This document shows, piece after piece, positions 20,198 through 57,264 of a DNA stretch of 64,000 bases. Made by a program: the position numbers and the translations under genes. The DNA lies in assembly GCF_003991155.1 (NCBI RefSeq), contig NZ_CP031293.1; one strand, written 5' to 3'. This stretch comes from Escherichia coli. GTDB taxonomy: Bacteria; Pseudomonadota; Gammaproteobacteria; Enterobacterales; Enterobacteriaceae. Every line of letters starts with the position of its first letter. Position 1 is the first letter of the stretch. Under the pieces are notes generated by a model, which worked only from the letters and a program-made list of their open reading frames with translations, made no database searches and was not told where the DNA came from.

Positions 20198-23100
20198 ATG
20201 AAAACCTATATTTATCAGGACGAAAAATCACATAAATTCTGGGCAGTGGAGCAACAGGGAAACGAGCTGCATATTAGTTGGGGCAAAGTCAGTACCAACG
20301 GGCAAAGCCAGGTAAAAAGCTTTGCTGATGCTGCGGCGGCGGAAAAAGCGGAACTGAGGCTGATTGCGGAGAAGATGAAGAAGGGGTATGTGGAGCAAGC
20401 GAAGGATAATTCTTTGCAACCTTCCCAAACGGTAACGGATTCTCTCAAGGTAGCGGCCTTATCCACCATTATTCAGGAACAACCCTTTTGCGTAGCAGAA
20501 GCCCGTGTGGCTGACAAAAATACAGATGATGTTTTACCGTGGCTGGCGAAAGATATTGCTGTCGTTTTTCCGCCCGAAGTTGTACACACCACGTTAAGCC
20601 ATCGCCGCTTTCCCGGAGTTCCTGTTCAGCAAGCAGACAACTTGACCCAGTTACGTCGCTTAGCCTGTAGCGTGTCGCAACGGGATAATAAAACAGCCAC
20701 ATTTGACTTCAGCGCCTGTTCTTTAGTATGGCAAAACACCGTCGCCCAGGCGATCAGTCAGATCGACTGCCTGAAAACAACACAGTTACCATCACCAGTA
20801 ATGGCTGTACTCACGGCACTTGAAATGAAATGCACAAGATATAAAGTGCGTGAGGATGTTATGGATCAGATCATTCAGGAAGGCGGTCTGGAATATGCTA
20901 CTGATGTAATAATACACCTTCAACAGATTGATATTGAATGGAATTATGCGAATAATATCATTATTATTCTGCCGTCTGGCATTGCACCTGATAACTTGCA
21001 GCAATATTCCAGTTTTGAATTACGCCTACGGAAACATTTATCACTGGCGGAAGAGTCTCTCTGGCAAAAATGTGCACAAAAACTTATTGCCGCAATTCCA
21101 CATATTCCAGAATGGCGGCAACCATTAATTGCTTTGTTATTACCCGAAAAACCAGAAATTGCACATGAAATTGCCCAGCGTCTACTGGGGAAAAAAAAAT
21201 TACCCTCGCTTGAGTGGCTAAAAATAGTGGCGACTGATGAGCACATTCTTGCCTCATTAGAAAAATATCACGAGCCATATGCCATTTTTGATGATTACTA
21301 TTGTGGTGCGATATGGTCAGCCACCGTATTACAGGAGCAAGGTGTTGCAGCCCTGCCCCGATTTGCTCCCTATGCCGCAAGTGACTACTGCGCCGATGTG
21401 TTGCGTCATATCAATCATCCGTTCGCATTAACACTGCTTATACGTGTAGCCGGGCATACTAAACGCTGTCACGATCGAATGACGAAAGCCTGCGCTGCGT
21501 TCCCACACGCAGCACTGGCAGCACTGGCGGAACTTCTAGTGCAAAAAGAAGAGAATAGTTGGCGCATTATGCTAATGACGATGCTTATCTCGCAACCAGC
21601 ACTGGCAGAACAGGTCATTCCCTGGCTTTCGACACCCGCAGCTGCAGTGCTGAAATCATGCCAGCAACAACTGACACAGCCATCAAACCATGCCAGCACC
21701 GATCTACTGCCGGCCATAGTAGTCTCCCCACCATGGCTTTCGAAAAAGAAAAAATCGTCGATTCCGGTGCTTGATTTAGCACCATTAGGCATTGAGCCAA
21801 TCAGTTATCTGACAGAAGAAATCAGTAATCAACTTTTGGCGAAATATATCTGGTATTCAAAACACATCACGGTTAGTCATGAAGAAAGTACTGCCAATCT
21901 GTTGGCAAGGATGGGTTTTCAACGACGGATCGCTGGTACATATATTAAAGCTCCCGAAGCGGTAGTTGAGGCATGGCTAAATGAAGATTATTCAACCTTA
22001 ATAAGTGAATTTAAGGTGTTTCATTCACCTACCGGGCATTATTGGCATTTGGGGATTTTGACAACATTGCCGCTGGAGAAAGCAATAAGAGCATGGAATG
22101 CCCTTACTCTATCTCCGCATACCGATACCGAATACGCCATGTTACATTTTGGACTCAAAGGATTACCTGGGTTAGTAAACTCACTTGCACGTTATCCACA
22201 GGAAGCCTTGCCCATAACGAATTACTTCGCAGCGAGTGAGCTGGCTCCTGCCGTCGCCCGCGCCTTCAACAAACTCAAAACCCTACGACAAGACGCCCGC
22301 ACCTGGCTGCTGAAATACCCGGAACACGCCATTACCGGCCTGCTACCTTCGGCGCTCGGCAAAGCCGGTGAAGCACAGGATAACGCCCGCGCTGCCTTGC
22401 GTATGCTTATCGAAAACGATCATCAGCCATTACTGCAAGAAATCGCCCGGCGTTATAACCAGCCGGAAGTAACAGATGCGGTGAACGCTATGCTTGCGCT
22501 CGATCCCTTAGATAATCACCCGACAAAAATCCCCACTCTTCCGGCCTTTTATCAGCCATCGATCTGGACCCGCCCGGTATTAAAAGCAAATGCCCAATCA
22601 CTGCCAGATAACGCCCTCCTCCACCTCGGTGAAATGCTCCGCTTCCCTCAGGAAGAGGCTCTGTATCCGGGATTATTGCAGGTGAAAGATGCCTGTACCG
22701 CCGACTCACTGGCTGAATTTGCCTGGGATCTGTTTACCGCCTGGCAGACCGCTGGCGCACCGTCGAAAGAAAGTTGGGCGTTCACTGCGTTAGGCGTTCT
22801 CGGTAACGATGACACCGCCCGCAAACTGACGCCATTAATCCGCGCCTGGCCTGGCGAATCTCAGCATAAACGTGCCACCGTTGGGTTGGATATTCTCGCT
22901 GCTATCGGCAGCGATATCGCCCTGATGCAGCTTAACGGCATCGCCCAGAAACTGAAATTCAAAGCATTACAGGAGCGAGCAAAAGAAAAAATTGCCGACA
23001 TTGCCGAAAGCCGCGAACTCACAGTGGCAGAACTTGAAGATCGGTTAGCACCGGATCTCGGTCTGGATGATAACGGTTCGCTGCTGCTGGATTTCGGGCC

Positions 23101-23992
23101 ACGGCAGTTCACCGTCAGCTTTGATGAAACCTTAAAACCGTTTGTGCGTGATGCTTCCGGCAGCCGCCTGAAAGACTTGCCTAAACCGAACAAAAGCGAT
23201 GATGAAACCCAAGCGAACGATGCAGTTAACCGCTACAAACTGTTGAAAAAAGATGCGCGTACCGTTGCCGCCCAGCAGGTAGCAAGGCTGGAATCCGCCA
23301 TGTGCCTACGCCGCCGCTGGTCGCCGGAAAACTTCCAGCTATTCCTGGTTGAGCATCCGCTGGTTCGCCACTTAACCCGCCGTCTGATTTGGGGCGTTTA
23401 TAGCACCGAAAACGAGCTACTGGCCTGTTTCCGGGTGGCAGAAGATAACAGCTACAGCACCGCTGACGATGATCTTTTCACCCTGCCGGAAGGCGATATC
23501 TCTATTGGTATTCCTCACGTTCTGGAAATATCACCGACGGATGCCGCCGCCTTTGGTCAGCTTTTTGCCGACTACGAACTTTTACCGCCGTTCCGTCAGC
23601 TCGACCGCAACAGTTATGCCCTGACTGAAGTCGAACGCAACGCCAGCGAACTAACCCGCTGGGCAGGCAGAAAATGCCCGAGCGGTCGGGTTATGGGGCT
23701 GTCGAATAAAGGCTGGGTGCGTGGTGAACCGCAGGACGGTGGCTGGATCGGCTGGATGATCAAACCTCTGGGCCGCTGGTCATTAATCATGGAAATCGAT
23801 GAAGGATTTGCAGTTGGTATGTCGCCAGCCGAACTCAGTGCCGAGCAACTCTTAAGCAAGCTGTGGCTATGGGAAGGCAAAGCAGAAAGCTATGGCTGGG
23901 GGAGTCATTCAACACAGGAAGCGCAGTTCTCCGCACTCGATGACATCACCGCCAGCGAGTTGATTAACGATATTGAAGCCCTGTTTGAATAA
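20198..23992 (+). CDS. Large MolR-like protein, paralog 2 (N-terminal WGR-like domain)
   Basis: 1264 aa; same N-terminal and C-terminal sequence blocks as paralog 1, separated from it by only 12 bp. Confidence 0.75.
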   Translation: MKTYIYQDEKSHKFWAVEQQGNELHISWGKVSTNGQSQVKSFADAAAAEKAELRLIAEKMKKGYVEQAKDNSLQPSQTVTDSLKVAALSTIIQEQPFCVAEARVADKNTDDVLPWLAKDIAVVFPPEVVHTTLSHRRFPGVPVQQADNLTQLRRLACSVSQRDNKTATFDFSACSLVWQNTVAQAISQIDCLKTTQLPSPVMAVLTALEMKCTRYKVREDVMDQIIQEGGLEYATDVIIHLQQIDIEWNYANNIIIILPSGIAPDNLQQYSSFELRLRKHLSLAEESLWQKCAQKLIAAIPHIPEWRQPLIALLLPEKPEIAHEIAQRLLGKKKLPSLEWLKIVATDEHILASLEKYHEPYAIFDDYYCGAIWSATVLQEQGVAALPRFAPYAASDYCADVLRHINHPFALTLLIRVAGHTKRCHDRMTKACAAFPHAALAALAELLVQKEENSWRIMLMTMLISQPALAEQVIPWLSTPAAAVLKSCQQQLTQPSNHASTDLLPAIVVSPPWLSKKKKSSIPVLDLAPLGIEPISYLTEEISNQLLAKYIWYSKHITVSHEESTANLLARMGFQRRIAGTYIKAPEAVVEAWLNEDYSTLISEFKVFHSPTGHYWHLGILTTLPLEKAIRAWNALTLSPHTDTEYAMLHFGLKGLPGLVNSLARYPQEALPITNYFAASELAPAVARAFNKLKTLRQDARTWLLKYPEHAITGLLPSALGKAGEAQDNARAALRMLIENDHQPLLQEIARRYNQPEVTDAVNAMLALDPLDNHPTKIPTLPAFYQPSIWTRPVLKANAQSLPDNALLHLGEMLRFPQEEALYPGLLQVKDACTADSLAEFAWDLFTAWQTAGAPSKESWAFTALGVLGNDDTARKLTPLIRAWPGESQHKRATVGLDILAAIGSDIALMQLNGIAQKLKFKALQERAKEKIADIAESRELTVAELEDRLAPDLGLDDNGSLLLDFGPRQFTVSFDETLKPFVRDASGSRLKDLPKPNKSDDETQANDAVNRYKLLKKDARTVAAQQVARLESAMCLRRRWSPENFQLFLVEHPLVRHLTRRLIWGVYSTENELLACFRVAEDNSYSTADDDLFTLPEGDISIGIPHVLEISPTDAAAFGQLFADYELLPPFRQLDRNSYALTEVERNASELTRWAGRKCPSGRVMGLSNKGWVRGEPQDGGWIGWMIKPLGRWSLIMEIDEGFAVGMSPAELSAEQLLSKLWLWEGKAESYGWGSHSTQEAQFSALDDITASELINDIEALFE

Positions 23993-24001
23993 GGAAAGAA
24001 C

Positions 24002-27000
24002 ATGGACAAGGAATTACCGTGGCTGGCGGATAACGCCCAACTGGAACTGAAATATAAAAAAGGCAAAACACCACTCAGCCATCGCAATTGGCCGGGAGAA
24101 CCGGTGCCTGTTATCACTGAAAGCCTCATCCAGACACTGGGTGATAAATTGCTACACATTGCTGAGAAGAAAAAAAACATTGTCTGGCGTTATGAAAATT
24201 TTTCACTGGAATGGCAGTCCGCCATCACGCAGGCCATCAACTTGATCGGCGAGCACAAACCCTCAGTTCCGGCCCGGACAATGGCGGCGCTAGCCTGTAT
24301 CGCGCAAAATGACAGCCAACAGTTGCTCGACGAAATCGTCCAACAAGAGGGACTGGAATATGCGACTGAGGTGGTGATTGCACGCCAGTTTATTGCACAG
24401 TGTTATGAGAGTGATCCTCTGCTAGTGACATTGCAGTATCAGAACGAGGATTATGGCTATGGTTATCGCTCAGAAACCTATAACGAATTCGATCTCCGAC
24501 TGCGTAAGCATCTCTCTCTGGCAGAGGAAAGCTGCTGGCAGCGTTGCGCCGACAAACTCATTGCCGCACTGCCAGGACTACCCCAAGTTCGCCGTCCTTT
24601 TATTGCGCTGATCCTCCCGGAAAAACCAGAAATCGCCAATGAGTTGGTAGGCCTTGAATGCCCGTGGACTCATTTTCATTCTAAGGAGTGGTTAAAAGTT
24701 GTTGCTACTGACCACAGGGCAGTGGGAAAACTCGAACGCTACTGGAGCCAGGATATATTTAGCGATCGCGAAGCCAGCTACATGTCGCATGAAAACCACT
24801 TCGGCTACGCGGCCTGCGCCGCCCTTTTGCGCGAACAAGGAATTGCAGCCGTTCCACGCCTCGCGATGTATGCCCATAAAGAAGATTGCGGCAGTCTGCT
24901 GGTACAAATTAACCATCCGCAGGTCATCCGTACCCTGCTGTTAGTTGCTGATAAAAATAAACCCAGCCTGCAACGTGTGGCTAAATACAGTAAAAACTTC
25001 CCCCATGCGACGCTTGCCGCACTGGCAGAGCTTCTGGCGTTAAAAGAACCGCCTGCACGCCCTGGTTATCCAATCATCGAAGACAAAAAGCTGCCTGCAC
25101 AGCAAAAAGCTCGAGATGAATACTGGCGTACGCTGTTACAAACGCTGATGGCATCGCAGCCACAACTGGCAGAAGAGGTGATGCCGTGGTTAAGTACTCA
25201 AGCCCAGGCAGTGCTGAATAGTTATTTATCGGCACCGCCCAAAACGGTTATTGATAGCACCGATAACATCCAAATGCCTGAAATCCTCGTTTCACCACCG
25301 TGGCGTAGTAAGAAAAAAATGACAGTTCCACGTCTTGATTTGGCACCGTTCGAATTAACGCCGCAAGTTTACTGGCAACCAGGCGAACGAGAGAGGCTTG
25401 CCGCCACTGAGTCTGCCCGTTATTTCAGCACGGAATCTCTTGCGGAACGCATGGAACAAAAAAGTGGACGAGTTGTATTACAGGAGCTGGGTTTTGGAGA
25501 TGATGTATGGCTGTTTTTGAATTATATACTCCCCGGAAAACTGGATGCTGCACGCAATTCACTCATTGTTCAGTGGCATTACTACCCAGGGCGGGTTGAA
25601 GAGATCATGAATGGCTGGAGCTCCCCGGAAGCTCAATTAGCAGAACAGGCGCTTCGCAACGGTCACGTAGAAGTGTTAATTAACATATGGGAAAATGACA
25701 GCTACTCACGCTATCGTCGGGAAAAGAGTATCTGGAACCTGTATTTATTGGCGCAGTTGCCGCGTGAGATGGCTTTGACTTTCTGGCTACGTATCAATGA
25801 GAAAAAGCATCTGTCTGCGGGTGAGGACTATTTTCTCAGTATCTTCGGATTGGATGCTCTACCAGGTCTGCTGTTGGCTTTTTCACATCGTCCAAAAGAA
25901 ACATTTCCATTAATTTTAAATTTCGGCGCAACAGAACTGGCCCTGCCCGTTGCCCGCGTCTGGCGACGTTTCGCGGCGCAGCGTGATCTGGCTCGCCAGT
26001 GGATTTTACATTGGCCGGAACATACAGCTACTGCACTTATCCCTCTTGTCTTCACCAAATCCAGCGATAATAGCGAAGCTGCATTACTTGCCCTGCGTTT
26101 ACTTTACGAACAGGGACATGGCGAATTACTGCAAACCGTGGCAAACCGCTGGCAGCATACAGATGTATGGCCTGCCCTGGAGCAATTACTTAAACAGGGT
26201 CCAATGGACATTTACCCGGCACGCATTCCCAAAGCCCCTGATTTCTGGCATCCGACAATGTGGTCCAGACCGAGACTTATCACGAATAATCAGCCTGTTA
26301 CCGATGATGCTCTGGAAATTATCGGCGACATGCTGCGCTTTACCCAGGGCGGACGTTTTTATTGCGGGCTGGAACAACTGAAAACGTTCTGCCAGCCACA
26401 AACGCTGGCAGCTTTTGCCTGGGATCTCTTCACCGCGTGGCAACAAGTTGGCGCCCCCGCAAAAGACAACTGGGCATTTCTGGCGTTAAGTCTCTTCGGT
26501 GACGAAAGCACGGCTCGGGATCTGACAACACAGATCCTCGCCTGGCCACAGGAAGGCAAATCTGCCCGTGCCGTCAGTGGCCTGAACATACTTACTCAGA
26601 TGAATAATGATATGGCGCTGATACAGCTGCATCATATATCGCAACGGGCGAAATCCCGCCCCTTACGTGATAACGCGGCGGAATTTCTTCAGGTGGTCGC
26701 AGAAAATCGTAGGCTAAGCCAGGAACAGTTAGCGGACAGATTAGTCCCAACACTGGGTCTTGATGATCCGCAGGCGTTGAGTTTTGATTTTGGTCCACGG
26801 CAATTTACCGTTCGCTTTGATGAAAACCTTAACCCGGTTATCTTTGATCAGCAAAACGTTCGCCAGAAAAGCGTTCCCCGGTTGCGCGCCGATGACGATC
26901 AACTGAAAGCGCCCGAGGCACTGGCCCGACTAAAAGGGCTAAAAAAAGATGCGACTCAGGTGAGCAAAAACCTGCTCCCGCGTCTTGAAACGGCCCTACG

Positions 27001-27634
27001 CACCACCCGACGCTGGTCGCTGGCAGATTTTCATACTCTGTTTGTTAATCATCCCTTTACCCGCCTGGTTACTCAGCGATTAATATGGGGCGTGTATCCG
27101 GCAAATGAACCGCGTCGTTTACTCAACGCCTTTCGTGTGGCCGCAGAGGGGGAGTTCTGCAATGCACAAGATGAGCCCATTGACCTGCCTGCGGATGCTT
27201 TGATTGGCATTGCCCACCCGTTAGAAATGACAGCAGAAATGCGCAGTGAATTTGCACAGCTTTTTGCCGATTACGAAATTATGCCGCCTTTTCGCCAGTT
27301 GACGAGGCGCACAGTGCTGCTCACGCCTGACGAGTCAGCCAGTAACAGCCTGACTCGCTGGGAAGGTAAATCCGCTACCGTTGGGCAACTTATGGGAATG
27401 CGATACAAAGGCTGGGAGTCAGGCTATGAGGACGCATTTGTCTATGACCTGGGCGAGTACCGGCTGGTCCTTAAGTTTTCATCCGGTTTTAACCACTACA
27501 ATGTTGATAGCAAAGCGCTAATGAGCTTCCGTTCTCTTCATGTATACCGTGACAATAAATCTGTCACTTTTGCCGAACTTGATGTGTTTGATTTGAGTGA
27601 AGCGTTAAGCGCACCCGACGTCATTTTCCATTAA
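24002..27634 (+). CDS. yehI: Large YehI protein (shares the C-terminal region of the two upstream paralogs, lacks the WGR-like N-terminus)
   Basis: 1210 aa; shared blocks such as DLFTAWQ..GAPAKDNWAF and FGPRQFTV; 9 bp downstream of paralog 2. Confidence 0.85.
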   Translation: MDKELPWLADNAQLELKYKKGKTPLSHRNWPGEPVPVITESLIQTLGDKLLHIAEKKKNIVWRYENFSLEWQSAITQAINLIGEHKPSVPARTMAALACIAQNDSQQLLDEIVQQEGLEYATEVVIARQFIAQCYESDPLLVTLQYQNEDYGYGYRSETYNEFDLRLRKHLSLAEESCWQRCADKLIAALPGLPQVRRPFIALILPEKPEIANELVGLECPWTHFHSKEWLKVVATDHRAVGKLERYWSQDIFSDREASYMSHENHFGYAACAALLREQGIAAVPRLAMYAHKEDCGSLLVQINHPQVIRTLLLVADKNKPSLQRVAKYSKNFPHATLAALAELLALKEPPARPGYPIIEDKKLPAQQKARDEYWRTLLQTLMASQPQLAEEVMPWLSTQAQAVLNSYLSAPPKTVIDSTDNIQMPEILVSPPWRSKKKMTVPRLDLAPFELTPQVYWQPGERERLAATESARYFSTESLAERMEQKSGRVVLQELGFGDDVWLFLNYILPGKLDAARNSLIVQWHYYPGRVEEIMNGWSSPEAQLAEQALRNGHVEVLINIWENDSYSRYRREKSIWNLYLLAQLPREMALTFWLRINEKKHLSAGEDYFLSIFGLDALPGLLLAFSHRPKETFPLILNFGATELALPVARVWRRFAAQRDLARQWILHWPEHTATALIPLVFTKSSDNSEAALLALRLLYEQGHGELLQTVANRWQHTDVWPALEQLLKQGPMDIYPARIPKAPDFWHPTMWSRPRLITNNQPVTDDALEIIGDMLRFTQGGRFYCGLEQLKTFCQPQTLAAFAWDLFTAWQQVGAPAKDNWAFLALSLFGDESTARDLTTQILAWPQEGKSARAVSGLNILTQMNNDMALIQLHHISQRAKSRPLRDNAAEFLQVVAENRRLSQEQLADRLVPTLGLDDPQALSFDFGPRQFTVRFDENLNPVIFDQQNVRQKSVPRLRADDDQLKAPEALARLKGLKKDATQVSKNLLPRLETALRTTRRWSLADFHTLFVNHPFTRLVTQRLIWGVYPANEPRRLLNAFRVAAEGEFCNAQDEPIDLPADALIGIAHPLEMTAEMRSEFAQLFADYEIMPPFRQLTRRTVLLTPDESASNSLTRWEGKSATVGQLMGMRYKGWESGYEDAFVYDLGEYRLVLKFSSGFNHYNVDSKALMSFRSLHVYRDNKSVTFAELDVFDLSEALSAPDVIFH

Positions 27635-27694
27635 ACCACAGCGGGCAGTGATGCGACTGCCCGTTATTAACACGACCTGCCACCGGGAAAAGCG

Positions 27695-28015
27695 ATGATC
27701 GTGCAAAAAGAGCTGGTCGCTATTTATGATTATGAAGTCCCTGTACCTGAAGATCCGTTTTCCTTCAGACTTGAGATCCATAAATGCTCTGAATTATTTA
27801 CAGGTTCCATCTACCGGCTGGAGCGATTCCGGCTACATCCAACATTTCATCAACGTGATCGAGAGGATATCGACCCGCTAATAAATGATGCGTTGATTTA
27901 TATAAGAGATGAGTTTATTGATGAGCGAAAATTACGGGGCGAATCACCAGAAATGGTAATAGCCATTTTTAATCGTGAACTACAGAATATATTCAACCAA
28001 GAAATAGAAAAATAG
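27695..28015 (+). CDS. yehK: Small protein YehK
   Basis: 106 aa ORF directly after yehI. Confidence 0.8.
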   Translation: MIVQKELVAIYDYEVPVPEDPFSFRLEIHKCSELFTGSIYRLERFRLHPTFHQRDREDIDPLINDALIYIRDEFIDERKLRGESPEMVIAIFNRELQNIFNQEIEK

Positions 28016-28453
28016 CTTTATTAAAGAGGGAGACGGTATTCCCCCTTAGATGCGTTTCAATTTGCCCGTTACTTCAACAAATCAATCAACCGTAACAGAG
28101 CCACTAATAACTCCAGTACGGCAATGAGCACAGTTAACTTTTGTGTCAGCGTGTCCATCCGCTCTCCTTATTAAGGAGCGCAACACCAGCACCTTACCCT
28201 TACACTGCCTGTCGATACTGGTTTACGTATGTTGGACCACGATGTTGCACTCCGGATCAGGGCACTACCTGCGGCACCACCCGTCCGGTAGCCATGACTT
28301 GAAATGGGTTCGATCCGGCGCAACGTCCCAACAGTCAGGATTATAAATCTCATTATCTTAATTGCAACGGGGTCCACCGATGGTTATAATTCGTTCGTTG
28401 GAACACGATGTTGCACAGGCTGCGGCGTTGGGCCTGAAAATAGTAAATAAAAG

Positions 28454-28481
28454 AACCTGCCTCACCAGCAGGTTTTTTTAT
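28454..28481 (+). terminator. Rho-independent terminator in the yehK-yehL intergenic region
   Basis: aacctgc / gcaggtt stem, ctcacca loop, then tttttta. Confidence 0.55.
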
Positions 28482-28590
28482 TTACTGTGATCTGCTTTCC
28501 AGATATTTTCCGCTCAAACAACTAATGCGCCAAACATTTATTGCGCGTAAAATATCGTTTATTTCATTAATACATTTCAGGGATGAATAT

Positions 28591-29679
28591 ATGTCACCGC
28601 AGAATAATCATCTGCAGCGTCCGCCTGCCGCTGTGTTATACGCCGATGAACTGGCAAAATTAAAACAAAATGATCACGCACCTTGCCCGCCCGGTTGGCA
28701 GTTAAGTTTGCCTGCGGCCCGTGCTTTTATCCTTGGCGACGAAGCGCAAAATATTAGCCGTAAAGTCGTGATCAGTCCCTCCGCTGTCGAACGCATGTTA
28801 GTCACTCTCGCTACCGGGCGCGGTTTGATGTTGGTGGGGGAACCTGGCACCGCAAAATCGCTCCTGTCTGAATTACTGGCAACCGCTATTAGCGGCGATG
28901 CCGGGTTAACCATCCAGGGCGGCGCATCTACCACCGAAGATCAAATCAAGTACGGCTGGAACTACGCTCTGCTTATCAATCATGGTCCATCAACGGAAGC
29001 GCTGGTCCCTGCCCCGCTTTACCAGGGAATGCGCGACGGCAAAATCGTCCGTTTTGAAGAAATAACGCGTACACCGCTGGAAGTGCAGGACTGTCTGTTA
29101 GGTATGCTTTCTGACAGGGTGATGACGGTGCCGGAACTCACCGGTGAAGCCAGTCAGCTCTATGCGCGGGAAGGCTTTAATATTATTGCCACTGCCAATA
29201 CCCGCGATCGCGGCGTCAATGAAATGAGTGCTGCGCTAAAGCGTCGTTTCGATTTTGAAACTGTCTTTCCGATTATGGATTTCGCTCAGGAGCTGGAGCT
29301 TGTCGCCAGTGCTTCGGCGCGTTTGCTGGCCCATAGCGGTATTCCGCATAAAGTGCCTGACGCGGTACTGGAGTTACTGGTCCGCACCTTCCGCGATCTG
29401 CGTGCCAACGGCGAAAAGAAAACGTCAATGGATACACTAACAGCGATTATGTCCACCGCTGAAGCCGTGAACGTGGCCCACGCTGTGGGCGTCCGCGCCT
29501 GGTTTTTAGCGAATCGCGCAGGTGAGCCAGCCGATCTGGTGGACTGTATTGCCGGAACCATCGTCAAAGATAACGAAGAAGATCGCGCTCGTCTGCGCCG
29601 TTACTTCGAACAGCGAGTCGCCACACATAAAGAAGCTCACTGGCAGGCTTATTATCAAGCCCGCCACCGCCTGCCGTGA
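28591..29679 (+). CDS. yehL: MoxR-like AAA+ ATPase YehL
   Basis: Start trimmed to MSPQNNH, 362 aa; Walker A GEPGTAKS. Confidence 0.9.
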   Translation: MSPQNNHLQRPPAAVLYADELAKLKQNDHAPCPPGWQLSLPAARAFILGDEAQNISRKVVISPSAVERMLVTLATGRGLMLVGEPGTAKSLLSELLATAISGDAGLTIQGGASTTEDQIKYGWNYALLINHGPSTEALVPAPLYQGMRDGKIVRFEEITRTPLEVQDCLLGMLSDRVMTVPELTGEASQLYAREGFNIIATANTRDRGVNEMSAALKRRFDFETVFPIMDFAQELELVASASARLLAHSGIPHKVPDAVLELLVRTFRDLRANGEKKTSMDTLTAIMSTAEAVNVAHAVGVRAWFLANRAGEPADLVDCIAGTIVKDNEEDRARLRRYFEQRVATHKEAHWQAYYQARHRLP

Positions 29680-29689
29680 GGAAAGATGC

Positions 29690-31969
29690 ATGAGCGAGCC
29701 GTTAATTGTCGGCATCCGGCATCATAGCCCGGCCTGCGCCCGGCTGGTGAAATCGTTAATCGAAAGCCAGCGGCCACGATACGTGTTGATTGAAGGCCCG
29801 GCTGATTTTAATGACCGGGTAGACGAACTGTTTTTAGCCCACCAGCTTCCGGTAGCTATTTACAGTTATTGCCAGTATCAGGACGGTACGGCCCCCGGGC
29901 GCGGTGCCTGGACGCCATTTGCTGAATTTTCACCGGAGTGGCAGGCGCTACAAGCCGCACGTCGTATTCAGGCACAAACTTACTTCATCGATTTACCTTG
30001 CTGGGCGCAGAGTGAAGAAGATGACGATTCGCCTGATACGCAAGAGGAAAGCCAGACCTTGCTGCTGCGTGCCACCCGCATGGATAACAGCGACACCCTG
30101 TGGGATCACTTGTTCGAAGATGAAAGCCAGCAAACTGCATTACCCTCTGCGCTGGCGCACTATTTTGCACAACTGCGGGGCGATTCCCCCGGAGATGCTC
30201 TCAATCGTCAGCGCGAAGCCTTTATGGCCCGCTGGATTGCATGGGCGATGCAGCAAAACAATGGCGACGTGTTAGTCGTCTGCGGCGGCTGGCATGCTCC
30301 GGCACTGGCAAAGATGTGGCGCGAATACACGCAGGAAATTAACACGCCGGAATTGCCCTCGCTGGCAGATGTCGTTACAGGTTGTTATCTCACCCCCTAC
30401 AGTGAAAAGCGCCTTGATGTGCTGGCAGGATACCTTTCCGGTATGCCTGCCCCGGTCTGGCAAAACTGGTGCTGGCGGTGGGGCTTGCAGCAGGCAGGTG
30501 AACAACTGCTGAAAACGGTTCTTACCCGTTTGCGCCAGCACCACTTGCCTGCTTCAACAGCGGATATGGCTGCCGCTCATCTGCATGCGATGGCACTGGC
30601 ACAGTTGCGCGGTCATACACTACCGTTACGCACTGACTGGCTGGATGCCATAGCAGGCTCGCTGATTAAAGAAGCCCTGAATGCGCCGTTGCCGTGGAGC
30701 TATCGCGGCGTTATTCATCCCGATACCGATCCGATTCTGCTAACGTTGATAGACACATTAGCGGGTGACGGATTCGGTAAACTTGCCCCTTCTACGCCAC
30801 AACCGCCTCTGCCAAAAGATGTCACCTGCGAACTGGAACGTACCGCAATCTCTCTTCCGGCGGAGCTTACCTTAAATCGCTTTAACCCCAATGGACTAGC
30901 GCAAAGTCAGGTGTTACATCGGCTGGCAATACTGGAGATCCCAGGGATTGTACGCCAGCAGGGAAGCACACTGACACTTGCAGGCAACGGTGAAGAACGC
31001 TGGAAATTAACCCGCCCGCTTAGCCAGCATGCGGCATTGATTGAGGCCGCCTGCTTTGGTGCAACACTCCAGGAAGCCGCACGCCATAAATTAGAAGCCG
31101 ATATGCTGGACGCGGGTGGAATCGGCAGTATCACCACATGTCTTAGCCAGGCGGCGTTAGCGGGTCTGGCGTCCTTCAGTCAGCAATTACTGGAACAACT
31201 CACATTATTAATCGCCCAAGAAAATCAGTTTGCCGAAATGGGCCAGGCGCTGGAAGTGCTTTACGCCTTGTGGCAGCTCGATGAAATCAGCGGTATGCAA
31301 GGCGCGCAGATATTACAAACGACGTTATGCGCGGCTATCGATCGCACGCTGTGGCTGTGTGAATCTAACGGCAGACCGGATGAAAAGGAGTTTCACGCTC
31401 ACCTGCATAGCTGGCAAGCGCTTTGCCATATCCTGCGCGATCTACATAGCGGCGTTAATTTACCCGGCGTTTCTCTTTCTGCGGCGGTAGCCTTACTGGA
31501 GCGACGCAGTCAGGCGATTCATGCCCCGGCGCTGGATCGCGGCGCGGCTCTTGGCGCACTAATGCGTCTGGAACATCCCAACGCCAGTGCCGAAGCGGCG
31601 CTGACGATGCTGGCGCAGTTATCCCCGGCACAATCCGGCGAGGCGCTGCACGGTTTGCTGGCGCTGGCCCGCCATCAACTGGCCTGTCAGCTGGCATTTA
31701 TCGCCGGTTTCAGTAGTCATTTAAATCAACTGAGTGACGACGATTTTATTAACGCCCTGCCCGATTTACGCGCGGCGATGGCCTGGCTACCACCACGAGA
31801 ACGCGGGACGCTGGCGCATCAGGTGCTTGAGCATTACCAGCTCGCACAGCTTCCCATTTCAGCGCTGCAAATGCCGTTGCATTGTCCACCGCAAGCCATT
31901 GCACATCATCAACAACTCGAACAGCAGGCACTGGCATCGCTGCAACACTGGGGAGTTTTCCATGTCTGA
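29690..31969 (+). CDS. yehM: Large uncharacterised protein YehM
   Basis: Start trimmed to MSEPLIVGIRHHSPA, 759 aa; begins 11 bp after the yehL stop. Confidence 0.85.
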   Translation: MSEPLIVGIRHHSPACARLVKSLIESQRPRYVLIEGPADFNDRVDELFLAHQLPVAIYSYCQYQDGTAPGRGAWTPFAEFSPEWQALQAARRIQAQTYFIDLPCWAQSEEDDDSPDTQEESQTLLLRATRMDNSDTLWDHLFEDESQQTALPSALAHYFAQLRGDSPGDALNRQREAFMARWIAWAMQQNNGDVLVVCGGWHAPALAKMWREYTQEINTPELPSLADVVTGCYLTPYSEKRLDVLAGYLSGMPAPVWQNWCWRWGLQQAGEQLLKTVLTRLRQHHLPASTADMAAAHLHAMALAQLRGHTLPLRTDWLDAIAGSLIKEALNAPLPWSYRGVIHPDTDPILLTLIDTLAGDGFGKLAPSTPQPPLPKDVTCELERTAISLPAELTLNRFNPNGLAQSQVLHRLAILEIPGIVRQQGSTLTLAGNGEERWKLTRPLSQHAALIEAACFGATLQEAARHKLEADMLDAGGIGSITTCLSQAALAGLASFSQQLLEQLTLLIAQENQFAEMGQALEVLYALWQLDEISGMQGAQILQTTLCAAIDRTLWLCESNGRPDEKEFHAHLHSWQALCHILRDLHSGVNLPGVSLSAAVALLERRSQAIHAPALDRGAALGALMRLEHPNASAEAALTMLAQLSPAQSGEALHGLLALARHQLACQLAFIAGFSSHLNQLSDDDFINALPDLRAAMAWLPPRERGTLAHQVLEHYQLAQLPISALQMPLHCPPQAIAHHQQLEQQALASLQHWGVFHV

Positions 31970-50536: not shown

Positions 50537-51298
50537 CTATTCTGGGTTGAACTGCGGATTCGCCAACATAAAGCCGCCATCCACTATCAACGACCGCCCG
50601 GTGGTGTAATTTGCGCCCTCCGAACAAAGCCATACCACCAGACTGGCAATCTCATGCGTTGTGCCAAAACGTCGCAAGGGAATCGAAGGCTCCGCGTCGG
50701 GCTTCACATCGCCGTCATCCATGCCGTTCATTGGCGTGGCGATCGCCCCAGGTGCGACTGCGTTCACCAAAATTTTATGCCTGACCAGCTCCAGCGCCAT
50801 TGCTTTGGTTAACCCGCCGAGCGCATGTTTAGCGGCTGTGTAGGCGCTGGCATCCGGCAGCGGCGTATGTTCATGTACCGATGTAATGTTGATGATGCGA
50901 CCGCCCTGCCCTTGCTTCACCATCTGGCGGGCAGCAATTTGCGAGCATAAAAATGCACCATCGACATCAACGGTAAAAATCTTGCGCCACTCATCGAAAG
51001 CCATATCAAGAAACGGCGCTTTGGTCATTGCGCCCGCATTATTCACCAGCACATCAATACGCCCCAGCCGATGAATAAGTTTCTCCAGCGCCAGTGCCCC
51101 TTCTGGTAGATTGCCGAGATCCAGTTGCACGATCTCCGCACGTACGCCGTGGCTAACTACCTCACGCGCGGTATCTTTTGCCCCTTCTTCATCTGAGTGC
51201 CAGGTAATGCCAATATCAAACCCCTGCTGCGCCAGTAATAACGCGCACTCTTTGCCGATCCCCGAATCGGAGGCGGTAATTATCGCGACCTGTGCCAT
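50537..51298 (-). CDS. yohF: Short-chain dehydrogenase/reductase YohF
   Basis: Start trimmed to MAQVAIITASDSGIGK (Rossmann TGxxxGxG-like), 253 aa. Confidence 0.9.
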   Translation of the reverse strand: MAQVAIITASDSGIGKECALLLAQQGFDIGITWHSDEEGAKDTAREVVSHGVRAEIVQLDLGNLPEGALALEKLIHRLGRIDVLVNNAGAMTKAPFLDMAFDEWRKIFTVDVDGAFLCSQIAARQMVKQGQGGRIINITSVHEHTPLPDASAYTAAKHALGGLTKAMALELVRHKILVNAVAPGAIATPMNGMDDGDVKPDAEPSIPLRRFGTTHEIASLVVWLCSEGANYTTGRSLIVDGGFMLANPQFNPE

Positions 51299-51350
51299 CG
51301 AGTTCTCCACTTAACGCTGAATAAATGTTAAGTATAGAAGGCGCATATCA

Positions 51351-52787
51351 TCAGCGTTTGTAACCTCCGCCCAGCGCACCGGTGAGTTGAATGGAGGCAT
51401 CCAGCCACTGCCCTTGCAATAACAGGCCATTGGCCCGCTCACGCAGCGCGGGGATTCTGGCTTCGCTGACGCGGGAACCAGCAATGATGCCCGCGTTAAA
51501 GCGCGCCTGCGCAAGACCTACCACACGCAAGGCATCGTGCTCAATTTGCGCCTGATGCTGGTTTTTCTCCGCCAGTGTCTGAACCTGGCTGGCCGCCCGC
51601 GCCACGTCATTTACCGCTTCAACCACCGCTTTGTTGTAGCTGGCGATAGACAAGTTGCTTTCGGCTTTTGCGATATCGAGATTGGCGTTAAGACGACCAC
51701 TATCGAAAATGGGTAGCGTCAGGCCTGCCGTAACGCCCATTTGCTGCGCGGAATGACGGAACAGATCGCTTAAGTGCAACGCATCCTGTTGCAGAAAGGC
51801 CATCAGGTTGATGTCAGGATAAAATGCCGCTTTTGCCGCATCAATAGTGCTTAACGATGACTCAACGTACCAGTGCGCCGCCTGCAAATCTGCCCGCCGG
51901 GCCAGTAAGGAGTACCCGAGTTCATCAGGAAGCTGACTTGCCACTTTCGGCAACGCGACCGGTTTAAGCTTCAATGACTTTGTCTGGTGGTTGGTGAGCG
52001 CACTTAACCGTGCCTCAATAATTTTCATTTTCCCCGCGACATCGTTGAGCTGCTGCCGGGTTTTGCTGGCATTAATATCGGTTTCCACACCTTCAACTGA
52101 AGAAGTAATCCCGTTCTGATATAGCTGGCGATCGGTCGCGATAATGGTGTTCTGCTCTTTTTCGATTTGCTGCAAGACCGTGTTTAACGCCGCCTGGGTT
52201 TGCCACTCCCAGTACAGGCGGGCTACGCTGCCAGCCAGCAATTGGCAGGTTTGCTCGCGTTCCGCCGCCCGTGCTTTAACCGTACCGAGGCGAGCAGTAA
52301 CCTCCGCCCGATTCTTTCCCCAGATATCGAGATGCCAGCCCGCCGTTAAGCCAAAAGTACCGTTGGTGTACCACGGACCGGTCGTACCTGCGGCAGGATC
52401 GTTCAGAGCAAACGGCCCCATTAACCCTTCTGCAGACATTTTTTGCCGCTCCATATCCGCAGAAAAGTCGATCTGCGGACCATCCTGAGTGGCAACTGCC
52501 TTCGCCTGGGCTTCAGCCAGCTGAATGCGCTGTTCAGCCACCTGCATATCCGGTGCGTTCTGTAGTGCATTGTTAATTAATGAAGTGAGTTGATTATCGT
52601 GATACTCCAGCCACCATTGGCTGTCTGGCCAACCATTTTTCAGCGCCGTGGGTAATGCGGTGTCAACTTGTGCCGCGGGTGTTTGCTGGCTTAACGCCTG
52701 GCGGGTTTCATGCATAGGCGCACACCCGGCCAGCATCAGTAACAGCGGAAAACAGGCGATGGCTGGATAAAAAGAATCACGATTCAT
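51351..52787 (-). CDS. mdtQ: Outer-membrane efflux lipoprotein MdtQ (YohG), apparently intact
   Basis: Start trimmed to MNRDSFYPAIACFPLLLMLAGC (lipobox), 478 aa with no internal stop. Confidence 0.85.
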   Translation of the reverse strand: MNRDSFYPAIACFPLLLMLAGCAPMHETRQALSQQTPAAQVDTALPTALKNGWPDSQWWLEYHDNQLTSLINNALQNAPDMQVAEQRIQLAEAQAKAVATQDGPQIDFSADMERQKMSAEGLMGPFALNDPAAGTTGPWYTNGTFGLTAGWHLDIWGKNRAEVTARLGTVKARAAEREQTCQLLAGSVARLYWEWQTQAALNTVLQQIEKEQNTIIATDRQLYQNGITSSVEGVETDINASKTRQQLNDVAGKMKIIEARLSALTNHQTKSLKLKPVALPKVASQLPDELGYSLLARRADLQAAHWYVESSLSTIDAAKAAFYPDINLMAFLQQDALHLSDLFRHSAQQMGVTAGLTLPIFDSGRLNANLDIAKAESNLSIASYNKAVVEAVNDVARAASQVQTLAEKNQHQAQIEHDALRVVGLAQARFNAGIIAGSRVSEARIPALRERANGLLLQGQWLDASIQLTGALGGGYKR

Positions 52788-53010
52788 GGGGGAATAATCA
52801 GGTAAGAAAAGGTGCGCGGAGATTACCGTGTGTTGCGATATATTTTTTAGTTTCGCGTGGCAATACATCAGTAGCAATAAAACGACATATCCAGAAAAAT
52901 ATACACTAAGTGAATGATATCTTCCGATTTATCTTAATCGTTTATGGATAACGGCAAAGGGCTTCGTTTTTTCCTATACTTATTCAGCACTCACAAATAA
53001 AGGAACGCCA

Positions 53011-53094
53011 ATGAAAATTATACTCTGGGCTGTATTGATTATTTTCCTGATTGGGCTACTGGTGGTGACTGGCGTATTTAAGATGATATTTTAA
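53011..53094 (+). CDS. yohP: Small membrane protein YohP (27 aa)
   Basis: Found by eye: MKIILWAVLIIFLIGLLVVTGVFKMIF with AAGGAA upstream. Confidence 0.8.
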   Translation: MKIILWAVLIIFLIGLLVVTGVFKMIF

Positions 53095-54560
53095 AATTAA
53101 TTAATGTCATCAGGTCCGAAAATAACGAGAATAGTTCAGTCTCTCATCCTGTTGCGCTCCTGTCATGTGCATTGCTTCATATCATCACTGGCGCAAGGAG
53201 CGCGCAGGGGGCGGCCAGTCGCCGTCGCCCCCTGCACCCCCGGGCTCTGGCGAACAAAATCGCCGCTGCGCGGTACCCTCGGCTTATCCCTTGCTGCTAC
53301 CGGGTCGGGCGCGAGGTAACATATATGGACGCTCCCGGAATGCAATGCTTTCTTCAGTTATGTAATAAAACGGGTAGGTGCAGCCATATATCCGGTTTCT
53401 GATGGGATTTTTATCCCGAACCATGATGAAATCCGCCAGGCAGGTACCAATCATCCTCTACGGGCTAACTTGCCCTTGTTACCTCTCGGTGTATCCTGCC
53501 TGCGGTCTTACCTGTTTTGCCATCTTCTGAAGTCACCTGCACCTCCCAGGACGTTAACTTTTTTTCAGCACCTCGTCAGATTGACTGACCTTGTGTCAGG
53601 CGAGCTGCCGAGGTTGATATTCAGTATTGTGTGACAACATTGACCACATGATCCTCGCTGTTTTTGCCGCCATGGCGACAACAGCTACATTGTAGTGCTT
53701 CCGCTCAAGGAGTCCCTGAAGCCAGGAATTCTCCTCAACCGCGCCGTTTCGGTTGACCCAGGCGGTAAGTGCGCGTGCGCCGTGAACCAGCAGGTATCGG
53801 AAATATCCATCTCCACGTTTGCTGATCCCTCCCAGTTGCTGTTTCCCGCCGCTGGAATGTTCCTTTGGTGTCAGCCCCAGCCATGAAGCGAACTGCTTTG
53901 CGGTACTGAATTGTCGGGCATTACCCACTGCTGCTACCACATAAGTGGCCGTTAGCATGCCAACCCCCGGGATCTTGGCCATTCTCTGGCAGGCTTCCTG
54001 CGTTCTATACCAGGAGGCCAGAGCTTCTTCTACCTGTTTAACTTGTTCTTCAAGTTCCCGGATATGTTTAGACTGTCTGTAGATGCTGGTTCTGACAAAG
54101 GGAGATAAACCATTTTCGCCATCCTCCAGAATGGCTGGCAGCTCACGTGTTAAATGGCTTTGTCCGGCCGCAATCGTAATACCAAACTCAGCAAGTGTGG
54201 CTCTTAAACTATTGGCACAGGCAATCCGCTCACGGATAAGTATTCCCCGTTCAGTGTGTAACGCTAAAACGGCCTGCTGCTCTTCGGTTTTTATCTGAAC
54301 AAAACGCATATTCGGACGGGTTACCGCTTCGCAGATTGCTTCAGCATCTGCTGCATCCGTCTTGTTCGTTTTCACATAAGGCTTCACATACTGCGGAGGT
54401 ATGAGTTTTACCTCATGACCATAGCGGGTGAATAATCGCGCAAAATAATGACTGGATGAGCAGGCTTCCATGCCAATCAGACAAGGTTCCAGTTGAATCA
54501 CAAACTGAACAAACTTAGCCCGGGTGAGCTTTTTACGCAAAATAGTATGGCCTTCATGAT

Positions 54561-55810
<1,250 letters not shown>

Positions 55811-56221
55811 CCACTACAGATCGACACCATGAAGCTGAAAAACGTTCTTTGCCAGGTCGATACCAAGAGTTGATACTTTCATGTGGACGCTCCTAATTTT
55901 TCAGGACGTATTGCAACGATCCAGTCTGGTACTTTGATACCGTAAAATCTGGAGCGTCCATCTCATTATCCCTGTAAAACGCGCCCTCAGCCCACATCCA
56001 TGTGGGCTGCCCCGCCCTTCAGGGAACGCCTCGGCGATTTTGACGCCACCAACACCGGTGCGGTTTGTAATTAAAGCGCAAGAACATCTTTAAATGAAAA
56101 CGAATACTCTACTGCTCCTTATGCATAACATTTCCTTTTAATTGCAACTTTACTCGTCCTTCCGCTTTCAGTAGTGTGTCATCGCGCATTTCGACTTCAT
56201 CTTTGCAAGGACTGGGTTTTC

Positions 56222-57121
56222 ATGTTTTCTGGGCTGTTAATCATTCTGGTTCCCCTGATTGTGGGTTACCTCATTCCGCTTCGCCAAAAAGCTGCATTAA
56301 GAGTTATTAATCAGCTATTAAGCTGGATGGTTTACCTTATTCTCTTTTTTATGGGTATCAGTCTGGCGTTTCTCGATAACCTCGCCAGTAACCTGTTGGC
56401 GATTCTGCATTATTCTGCTGTCAGTATTACCGTTATTTTACTGTGTAATATTGCCGCCCTGATGTGGCTGGAGCGCGGCCTGCCATGGCGCAACCACCAT
56501 CATCAAGAAAAACTCCCGTCGCGTATTGCGATGGCGCTGGAGTCGCTAAAACTGTGCGGCGTAGTAGTGATTGGTTTTGCCATTGGCCTGAGTGGACTGG
56601 CTTTCTTACAACATGCGACCGAAGCCAGTGAATACACCTTAATTCTGCTACTTTTCCTCGTCGGTATTCAGTTGCGCAATAATGGCATGACCTTAAAGCA
56701 GATTGTCCTTAATCGCCGGGGAATGATTGTCGCCGTGGTGGTGGTTGCCAGTTCATTAATTGGTGGTTTAATTAACGCCTTTATTCTTGATCTTCCCATC
56801 AATACCGCGCTGGCAATGGCCTCCGGTTTCGGCTGGTATTCTCTTTCCGGTATTTTATTGACCGAATCTTTTGGTCCGGTAATCGGGAGCGCGGCGTTTT
56901 TTAATGATCTGGCCCGTGAGCTGATTGCTATTATGTTGATCCCTGGGCTGATTCGCCGTAGCCGCTCGACTGCACTGGGCTTATGTGGTGCGACGTCGAT
57001 GGATTTCACCCTGCCCGTTCTTCAACGTACTGGCGGGCTGGATATGGTCCCGGCGGCGATTGTTCACGGTTTTATTCTTAGCCTGTTAGTGCCGATCCTC
57101 ATCGCCTTTTTCTCTGCATAA
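56222..57121 (+). CDS. lysO: Lysine exporter LysO (YbjE)
   Basis: Start trimmed to MFSGLLIILVPLIVGYLIPL, 299 aa, multi-pass membrane protein. Confidence 0.9.
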   Translation: MFSGLLIILVPLIVGYLIPLRQKAALRVINQLLSWMVYLILFFMGISLAFLDNLASNLLAILHYSAVSITVILLCNIAALMWLERGLPWRNHHHQEKLPSRIAMALESLKLCGVVVIGFAIGLSGLAFLQHATEASEYTLILLLFLVGIQLRNNGMTLKQIVLNRRGMIVAVVVVASSLIGGLINAFILDLPINTALAMASGFGWYSLSGILLTESFGPVIGSAAFFNDLARELIAIMLIPGLIRRSRSTALGLCGATSMDFTLPVLQRTGGLDMVPAAIVHGFILSLLVPILIAFFSA

Positions 57122-57154
57122 TACCTCTCTGGCGGTAGATCCCTGCCGCCAAAA

Positions 57155-57168
57155 TTGCGCTAAATCAA
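57155..57168. promoter_or_regulatory. Candidate FNR-like site upstream of hcp
   Basis: TTGCGctaaATCAA resembles TTGAT-N4-ATCAA with two mismatches in the left half. Low confidence. Confidence 0.25.
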
Positions 57169-57264
57169 TCTCCCCTAAAGTTGCATTAAAAATCTCTTTT
57201 ATCCCCGCGTTAAGCGTCTTAACCTTAAACATGTATATTAAATATAACTTTAAAAGGTGTGATC

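Follow-up and report, generated by a model that had tools for sequence, protein, structure and literature searches.

The mdtQ gene in the window, as the whole stretch of 64,000 nucleotides of Escherichia coli DNA analysed here is called, is with a probability of about 0.9 an ordinary, wild-type and intact allele that is kept under purifying selection and codes for a TolC-type outer-membrane factor. An intact copy is normal for E. coli, and it is the laboratory strains of the K-12 type that deviate. RefSeq annotation and a recent review (PMC11762307) already cover the family assignment, the pseudogene of K-12, the intact state and the conservation across the species. The gene and its signal peptide are located as follows:

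51351-52787, minus strand: mdtQ coding sequence (ORF list, raw sequence, family models and identity with NZ_CP029747.1)
52722-52787, minus strand: lipoprotein signal peptide, codons 1-21 together with the codon of Cys22 (read from the translation)

According to the ORF list and the translation, the minus-strand frame opens with the ATG at 52787, closes with a stop codon at 51351-51353 and comprises 1437 bases, i.e., 478 codons plus the stop, without any internal stop. The first-pass annotation had described the gene as intact with this number of codons, and both its coordinates and its length proved to be accurate. As the open frame of 478 codons is accompanied by a full-length family match, chance is excluded as its origin. 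The mechanically delimited ORF begins earlier, at a TTG (52877; 508 aa), and this form is also present in some database entries. The TTG start was rejected, as the signal peptide would then be an internal segment preceded by 30 residues; it is likewise disfavoured by the NCBIfam model of MdtQ, which begins at the ATG at 52787 and aligns over positions 1-478 of 478. Only with this ATG as the start does the signal peptide lie N-terminally. The N-terminus then reads MNRDSFYPAIACFPLLLMLAG followed by CAP and features a hydrophobic core and, behind it, the lipobox L19-A20-G21-C22 (LAG directly before the C), so that the lipoprotein signal peptide noted at the first reading is recovered in the translation. 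The lipobox cysteine is encoded at 52722-52724 and is followed by Ala in position +2. An Ala in this position implies sorting to the outer membrane according to the +2 rule of the Lol system.

E. coli has four TolC-type outer-membrane factors, MdtQ among them. Judged by its sequence, the window gene is MdtQ itself (formerly yohG) and not a relative, and it belongs to the NodT lipoprotein subfamily. The NCBIfam equivalog model of MdtQ (NF008524) gave 1022.1 bits at a cutoff of 650, with residues 1-478 of the protein on positions 1-478 of 478 of the profile. TIGR01845, which describes NodT outer-membrane-factor lipoproteins, gave 271.9 bits at a cutoff of 210.05 (residues 16-475 on profile positions 4-460 of 460), and the lipobox of this family with its invariant Cys is present in the window protein, as read from the translation. 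Pfam OEP (PF02321) matched with 104.9 bits in two stretches, which correspond to a tandem OEP repeat. On the DNA level, the gene matches mdtQ as annotated in E. coli 2016C-3878 (NZ_CP029747.1) with 100% identity, and a stretch of 17,437 bp around it differs from this genome by one base. The translated product and WP_001078122.1 have the same sequence. Likewise, MdtQ of O157:H7 (Q8X659 / WP_001078122.1) is the same gene with 478 aa at the same yohP/yohF locus, without any substantial difference.

The closest E. coli paralogue is MdtP (YjcP), the NodT-family outer-membrane factor of the mdtNOP operon, which shares the subfamily and the architecture with MdtQ. The MdtP family model scored the window protein with 355.9 bits over residues 17-477, and as this is below the model cutoff of 597, the protein is not MdtP. 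Moreover, the MdtP gene is accompanied by those of its adaptor and pump, and mdtQ has no such companions (PMC11762307). Among the channels of solved structure, window MdtQ is homologous to VceC of Vibrio cholerae (1YC9; E = 1.6e-38, residues 51-477) as well as to OprM (1WP1; E = 9e-23) and CusC (3PIK; E = 2.5e-21), each over nearly the full length, and further crystallised homologues include SilC, CmeC, OprN, MtrE, and OprJ. The sequence identity between MdtQ and TolC amounts to 12% (PMC11762307). In general, VceC, OprM, CusC, and TolC exhibit low identity to MdtQ and differ from it in having defined partners (VceAB, MexAB, CusBA, and AcrAB, respectively). TolC is, in addition, not a lipoprotein, whereas MdtQ is predicted to be one.

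That mdtQ is a pseudogene in K-12 had been stated in the first-pass annotation and is confirmed by the available annotation and by alignment. The annotation of MG1655 (NC_000913.3) lists mdtQ (b2139) as a 1436-bp pseudogene, and in a K-12-serotype strain the gene is annotated as 'frameshifted'. The alignment with the K-12 locus, which had been proposed as a check for an intact K-12 copy, revealed a frameshifted one. Window and MG1655 mdtQ differ by 33 substitutions in 1437 bp, 3 of which are non-synonymous, and by one gap, which lies in a homopolymer run:

52636-52640, minus strand: run of five A (five T on the plus strand) in codons K50/N51 (pairwise alignment with MG1655)

At gene positions 148-152, the window holds A5 and K-12 holds A4, which equals a 1-bp deletion. 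Behind K50, the K-12 frame is shifted and meets a stop 19 codons further on, resulting in a truncated product of 69 aa, and the remaining 428 codons are open in another frame which lacks the signal peptide. Restoring one A in silico led back to the full frame of 478 codons. The K-12 gene is found at the same locus with the same neighbours on the yohF side as in the window and is distinguished by the missing A. This single 1-bp deletion is the sole lesion of the K-12 gene and thus points to a recent inactivation.

With regard to the distribution of the intact gene, 5420 out of the 5426 complete genomes of E. coli contain mdtQ, which is covered to at least 80% in 5390 of them, with a DNA identity of 96.9-100% across the latter. 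A 66-bp probe containing the intact A5 run matched exactly in 4584 of the 5426 complete genomes and the 65-bp K-12 probe with A4 in 355, with roughly 470 genomes differing somewhere within the probe and being outside both counts. Among the matches listed for the K-12 probe, all carriers (30 of 30) were K-12-type laboratory strains such as MG1655, C600, J53, ER1709, ME8067, and evolved derivatives. The first-pass annotation had singled out this strain as one that may retain the gene; the gene is indeed intact, and its retention is not unusual, since the A5 form is carried by the 4584 genomes mentioned. When 40 rows were sampled evenly down the ranking, 37 had an aligned length of exactly 1437 bp and two, of the K-12 type, of 1436 bp; the remaining one was truncated. 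All seven non-K-12 alleles that were retrieved, among them those of O157:H7, O25b:H4, and O111:H8, were annotated as intact and had no internal stops. In addition, the exact window protein is found on at least 1000 contigs, and its 90% cluster has 11,156 members, including MdtQ of E. albertii. A review from 2025 places mdtQ among the conserved genes of the E. coli core genome, its annotation as a pseudogene notwithstanding (PMC11762307).

Losses of the gene occur in nature as well. The one truncated row of the sample is strain STEC379, where an IS1-associated deletion removed the 5' part of mdtQ; here (NZ_CP091024.1, 2248-3573) IS1A abuts a 5'-truncated remnant, which is annotated as 'TolC family protein, incomplete'. 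Independent truncations were described for some isolates of Salmonella Typhi and Paratyphi A (PMC9241588). Accordingly, mdtQ is dispensable in some niches.

By the method of Nei and Gojobori, the window allele differs from each of eight further alleles by 23-38 synonymous and 3-6 non-synonymous changes, with a dN/dS of 0.029-0.051. Such values indicate strong purifying selection on mdtQ, which in turn argues for a functional MdtQ protein in so far as this can be concluded from allele comparison.

From the knowledge of the family, a route to a working channel can be proposed. The MdtQ precursor would be exported by the Sec system and then lipidated and cleaved at Cys22 by Lgt, LspA, and Lnt. 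The Lol system would deliver the lipoprotein to the outer membrane, as residue +2 is Ala and not Asp. There, MdtQ is expected to form a trimer with a pore of the beta-barrel type and a long tunnel of alpha-helices in the periplasm, and this tunnel would be opened by the periplasmic adaptor of an inner-membrane pump, thereby allowing substrates to leave the cell. The neighbours of mdtQ are yohP, yohF, yohD, and yohC, and no gene for an adaptor or for an efflux transporter of the RND, MFS or ABC type was found near it. Lacking an adjacent adaptor or pump, MdtQ is considered an orphan like TolC. As TolC is likewise unlinked to its pumps, the missing neighbour is compatible with a tripartite mechanism and bears on the identity of the partner and not on the membership in the family.

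The sequence upstream of mdtQ and the gene downstream of it have to be considered for its expression. The following features are involved:

52788-53010, no strand assigned: divergent mdtQ-yohP intergenic region, presumed to hold the mdtQ promoter (comparison with K-12)
53011-53094, plus strand: yohP, a small membrane protein of 27 aa, divergent from mdtQ (PF25659, E = 1.8e-13; RefSeq)
50537-51298, minus strand: yohF, an oxidoreductase of the SDR family (RefSeq; Pfam adh_short and adh_short_C2)

Directly before the ATG of mdtQ, 230 bases (52788-53017, including the first seven of yohP) exhibit 1 difference to K-12, compared with the 33 differences in the 1437 bases of the coding sequence. This conservation suggests that the region may be a constrained regulatory sequence. 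No sequence resembling a Shine-Dalgarno motif was found directly before the ATG (...CCTGATTATTCCCCCATG), and a scan of 51200-53600 for promoters and terminators returned no more matches than shuffled sequence. Within the intergenic region 52788-53010, no match to the sigma-70 consensus was detected; the sole minus-strand match lies at 53110-53083 and thus beyond the region. An experimental definition of the mdtQ promoter does not exist according to the literature (PMC11762307). With neither a Shine-Dalgarno sequence nor a convincing promoter, the expression of mdtQ may be low or conditional. On the other side of the gene, yohF follows 52 bp downstream on the same strand, and a terminator-like site was not detected in between. 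A co-transcription of mdtQ and yohF is therefore possible as far as can be told from this arrangement, and if it occurs, the K-12 frameshift could be polar on yohF.

These features lend some credit to an alternative reading, according to which the gene is intact and effectively cryptic, i.e., poorly expressed or devoid of a pump partner, and provides no measurable gain in efflux over K-12. Besides the missing Shine-Dalgarno sequence, the promoter matches at chance level and the orphan position without an adjacent adaptor or pump, it is favoured by the normal growth of K-12 without mdtQ, by the truncations in the Salmonella Typhi and Paratyphi A isolates (PMC9241588), and by the IS1-truncated copy of STEC379. 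The same applies to the statement in the review that the function of MdtQ is not elucidated (PMC11762307). Nevertheless, a cryptic gene is difficult to reconcile with a dN/dS of 0.03-0.05 and the near-universal intactness across 5426 genomes, which together indicate that E. coli makes use of MdtQ at some stage of its life in nature. Likewise, the region between mdtQ and yohP would hardly be expected to be more conserved (1/230) than the coding sequence (33/1437). The cryptic state is thus regarded as a possible yet rather unlikely explanation, and the ordinary, functional allele is preferred.

Even for a functional allele, the share of MdtQ in drug resistance is probably small next to that of TolC. 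According to the review, the published deletion phenotypes of mdtQ are small (PMC11762307). If the parent strain behind the 2001 phenotypes was K-12, a phenotype from deleting an already frameshifted yohG would be puzzling. Those yohG deletion phenotypes reportedly originate from Sulavik et al. (2001). More speculatively, and with some doubt, MdtQ might fulfil a specific physiological role in export which was systematically missed by genetics based on K-12, as the gene is under strong purifying selection in nearly all natural E. coli and yet dead in K-12. Such a role is possibly tied to the co-oriented yohF or to stresses specific to the gut. If it exists, a natural isolate such as the present one would be the right background to find it. 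In any case, K-12 is atypical for mdtQ, and negative results on MdtQ obtained in K-12 are uninformative on natural isolates. Functional work on MdtQ would be better conducted in such natural strains or in K-12 repaired by one A.

The window lineage carries two amino acid substitutions, R181C and R417H, by which its allele differs from other MdtQ sequences:

52245-52247, minus strand: codon 181, TGC (Cys), with Arg in 8 of 8 other alleles (allele comparison)
51537-51539, minus strand: codon 417, CAC (His), with Arg in 8 of 8 other alleles (allele comparison)

It could accordingly be argued that the two substitutions damaged the channel and that the gene of this strain is in frame and functionally impaired. 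Apart from the Arg shared by the eight other alleles at both positions, R181C would place an unpaired cysteine into a periplasmic helical region. However, the variants persist in many independent isolates, as the exact 65-bp context of R181C is found in 42 complete genomes and that of R417H in 144, including IAI39, CE10, and ST648, and their carriers originate from humans, livestock (cattle, poultry), pets (dogs), wildlife, and wastewater. Furthermore, the family tolerates changes at these sites, since in HMMER alignments residues 181 and 417 both align to Ala in VceC, and residue 417 aligns to K391 in OprM. Residue 417 is located 12 residues before R429-F430 of MdtQ, which correspond to R403-Y404, a gating pair of OprM. 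The idea that R181C or R417H hits a gating residue was also considered and was found to be unsupported, as the alignment with OprM and VceC puts both at non-conserved positions. Further decay is not visible in the allele. Taken together, an impaired channel is improbable, and both substitutions would rather represent established natural variants which give no reason to think that the protein is disabled.

Finally, homopolymer runs are error-prone in sequencing, and an artefact of sequencing or annotation in a truly intact K-12 gene is effectively refuted and deserves next to no credence, because the identical A4 recurs in 355 complete genomes, each sequenced independently (MG1655, C600, J53, ER1709, and others), and the annotation gives a pseudogene for MG1655 and a frameshifted gene for a sister strain.

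The surroundings of the gene deviate from K-12 on the far side of yohP. In the window, the gene order is poxB-hcr-hcp-lysO-IS-IS-yohP-mdtQ-yohF-yohD-yohC-pbpG-dld-bglX-osmF, with mdtQ lying between yohP and yohF as in K-12 and seven other strains. Positions 52700-53322 are collinear with mdtQ-yohP-TRIP1c of K-12 (98.6% identity) and are followed by an insertion of 2645 bp (53323-55967) within the TRIP1 repeat upstream of yohP. From 55968 onward, the sequence matches the TRIP1a-lysO side of K-12 (97.5%) and not dusC. The insertion is an element of the IS110 family, the transposase gene of which is split by a nested element of the IS3 family. The ORF at 53596-54609 (minus strand, 337 aa, 'IS110 family transposase') does not cover positions 1-18 of the DEDD_Tnp_IS110 profile. 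The N-terminus that it lacks, MKVSTLGIDLAKNVFQLHGVD, is found across the IS3 element, where it is encoded around 55820-55883. With the N-terminus of its transposase split off, the IS110-family element is probably defective; RefSeq annotates the split transposase as an intact gene.

As seen in positions 52700-57200 of the window, yohP-mdtQ is joined to lysO-hcp-hcr-poxB rather than to dusC. The junction with lysO indicates a large inversion covering K-12 coordinates of about 0.915 to 2.229 Mb, a span which, given the position of dif, is roughly symmetric about the replication terminus. The inversion breakpoint and the two ends of the IS110-family insertion fall at exactly the same positions. 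The identical junction is carried by the sister strains STLIN_13 and MRY15-117, the sources of which are wastewater from Hong Kong and Japanese cattle; accordingly, the rearrangement is fixed in the lineage. It corresponds to the yohG-ybjE junction, one of the TRIP1a/1c rearrangement classes catalogued previously (PMC10888264). The intergenic region between mdtQ and yohP is left untouched by the rearrangement.

Two further observations concern other parts of the window and are based on RefSeq annotation. At approximately 20200-31600 (NZ_CP029747.1, 1383410-1394659), three consecutive large genes with DUF4132 domains are located between yehK and metG, namely yehI and two paralogues of about 1265 aa each. 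Near the start of the window, a tyrosine recombinase/integrase, an HNH endonuclease, and a recombinase are annotated in NZ_CP029747.1 directly after the TPP riboswitch by rcnR, and this cluster may represent an integrated element at the thiM-side locus.
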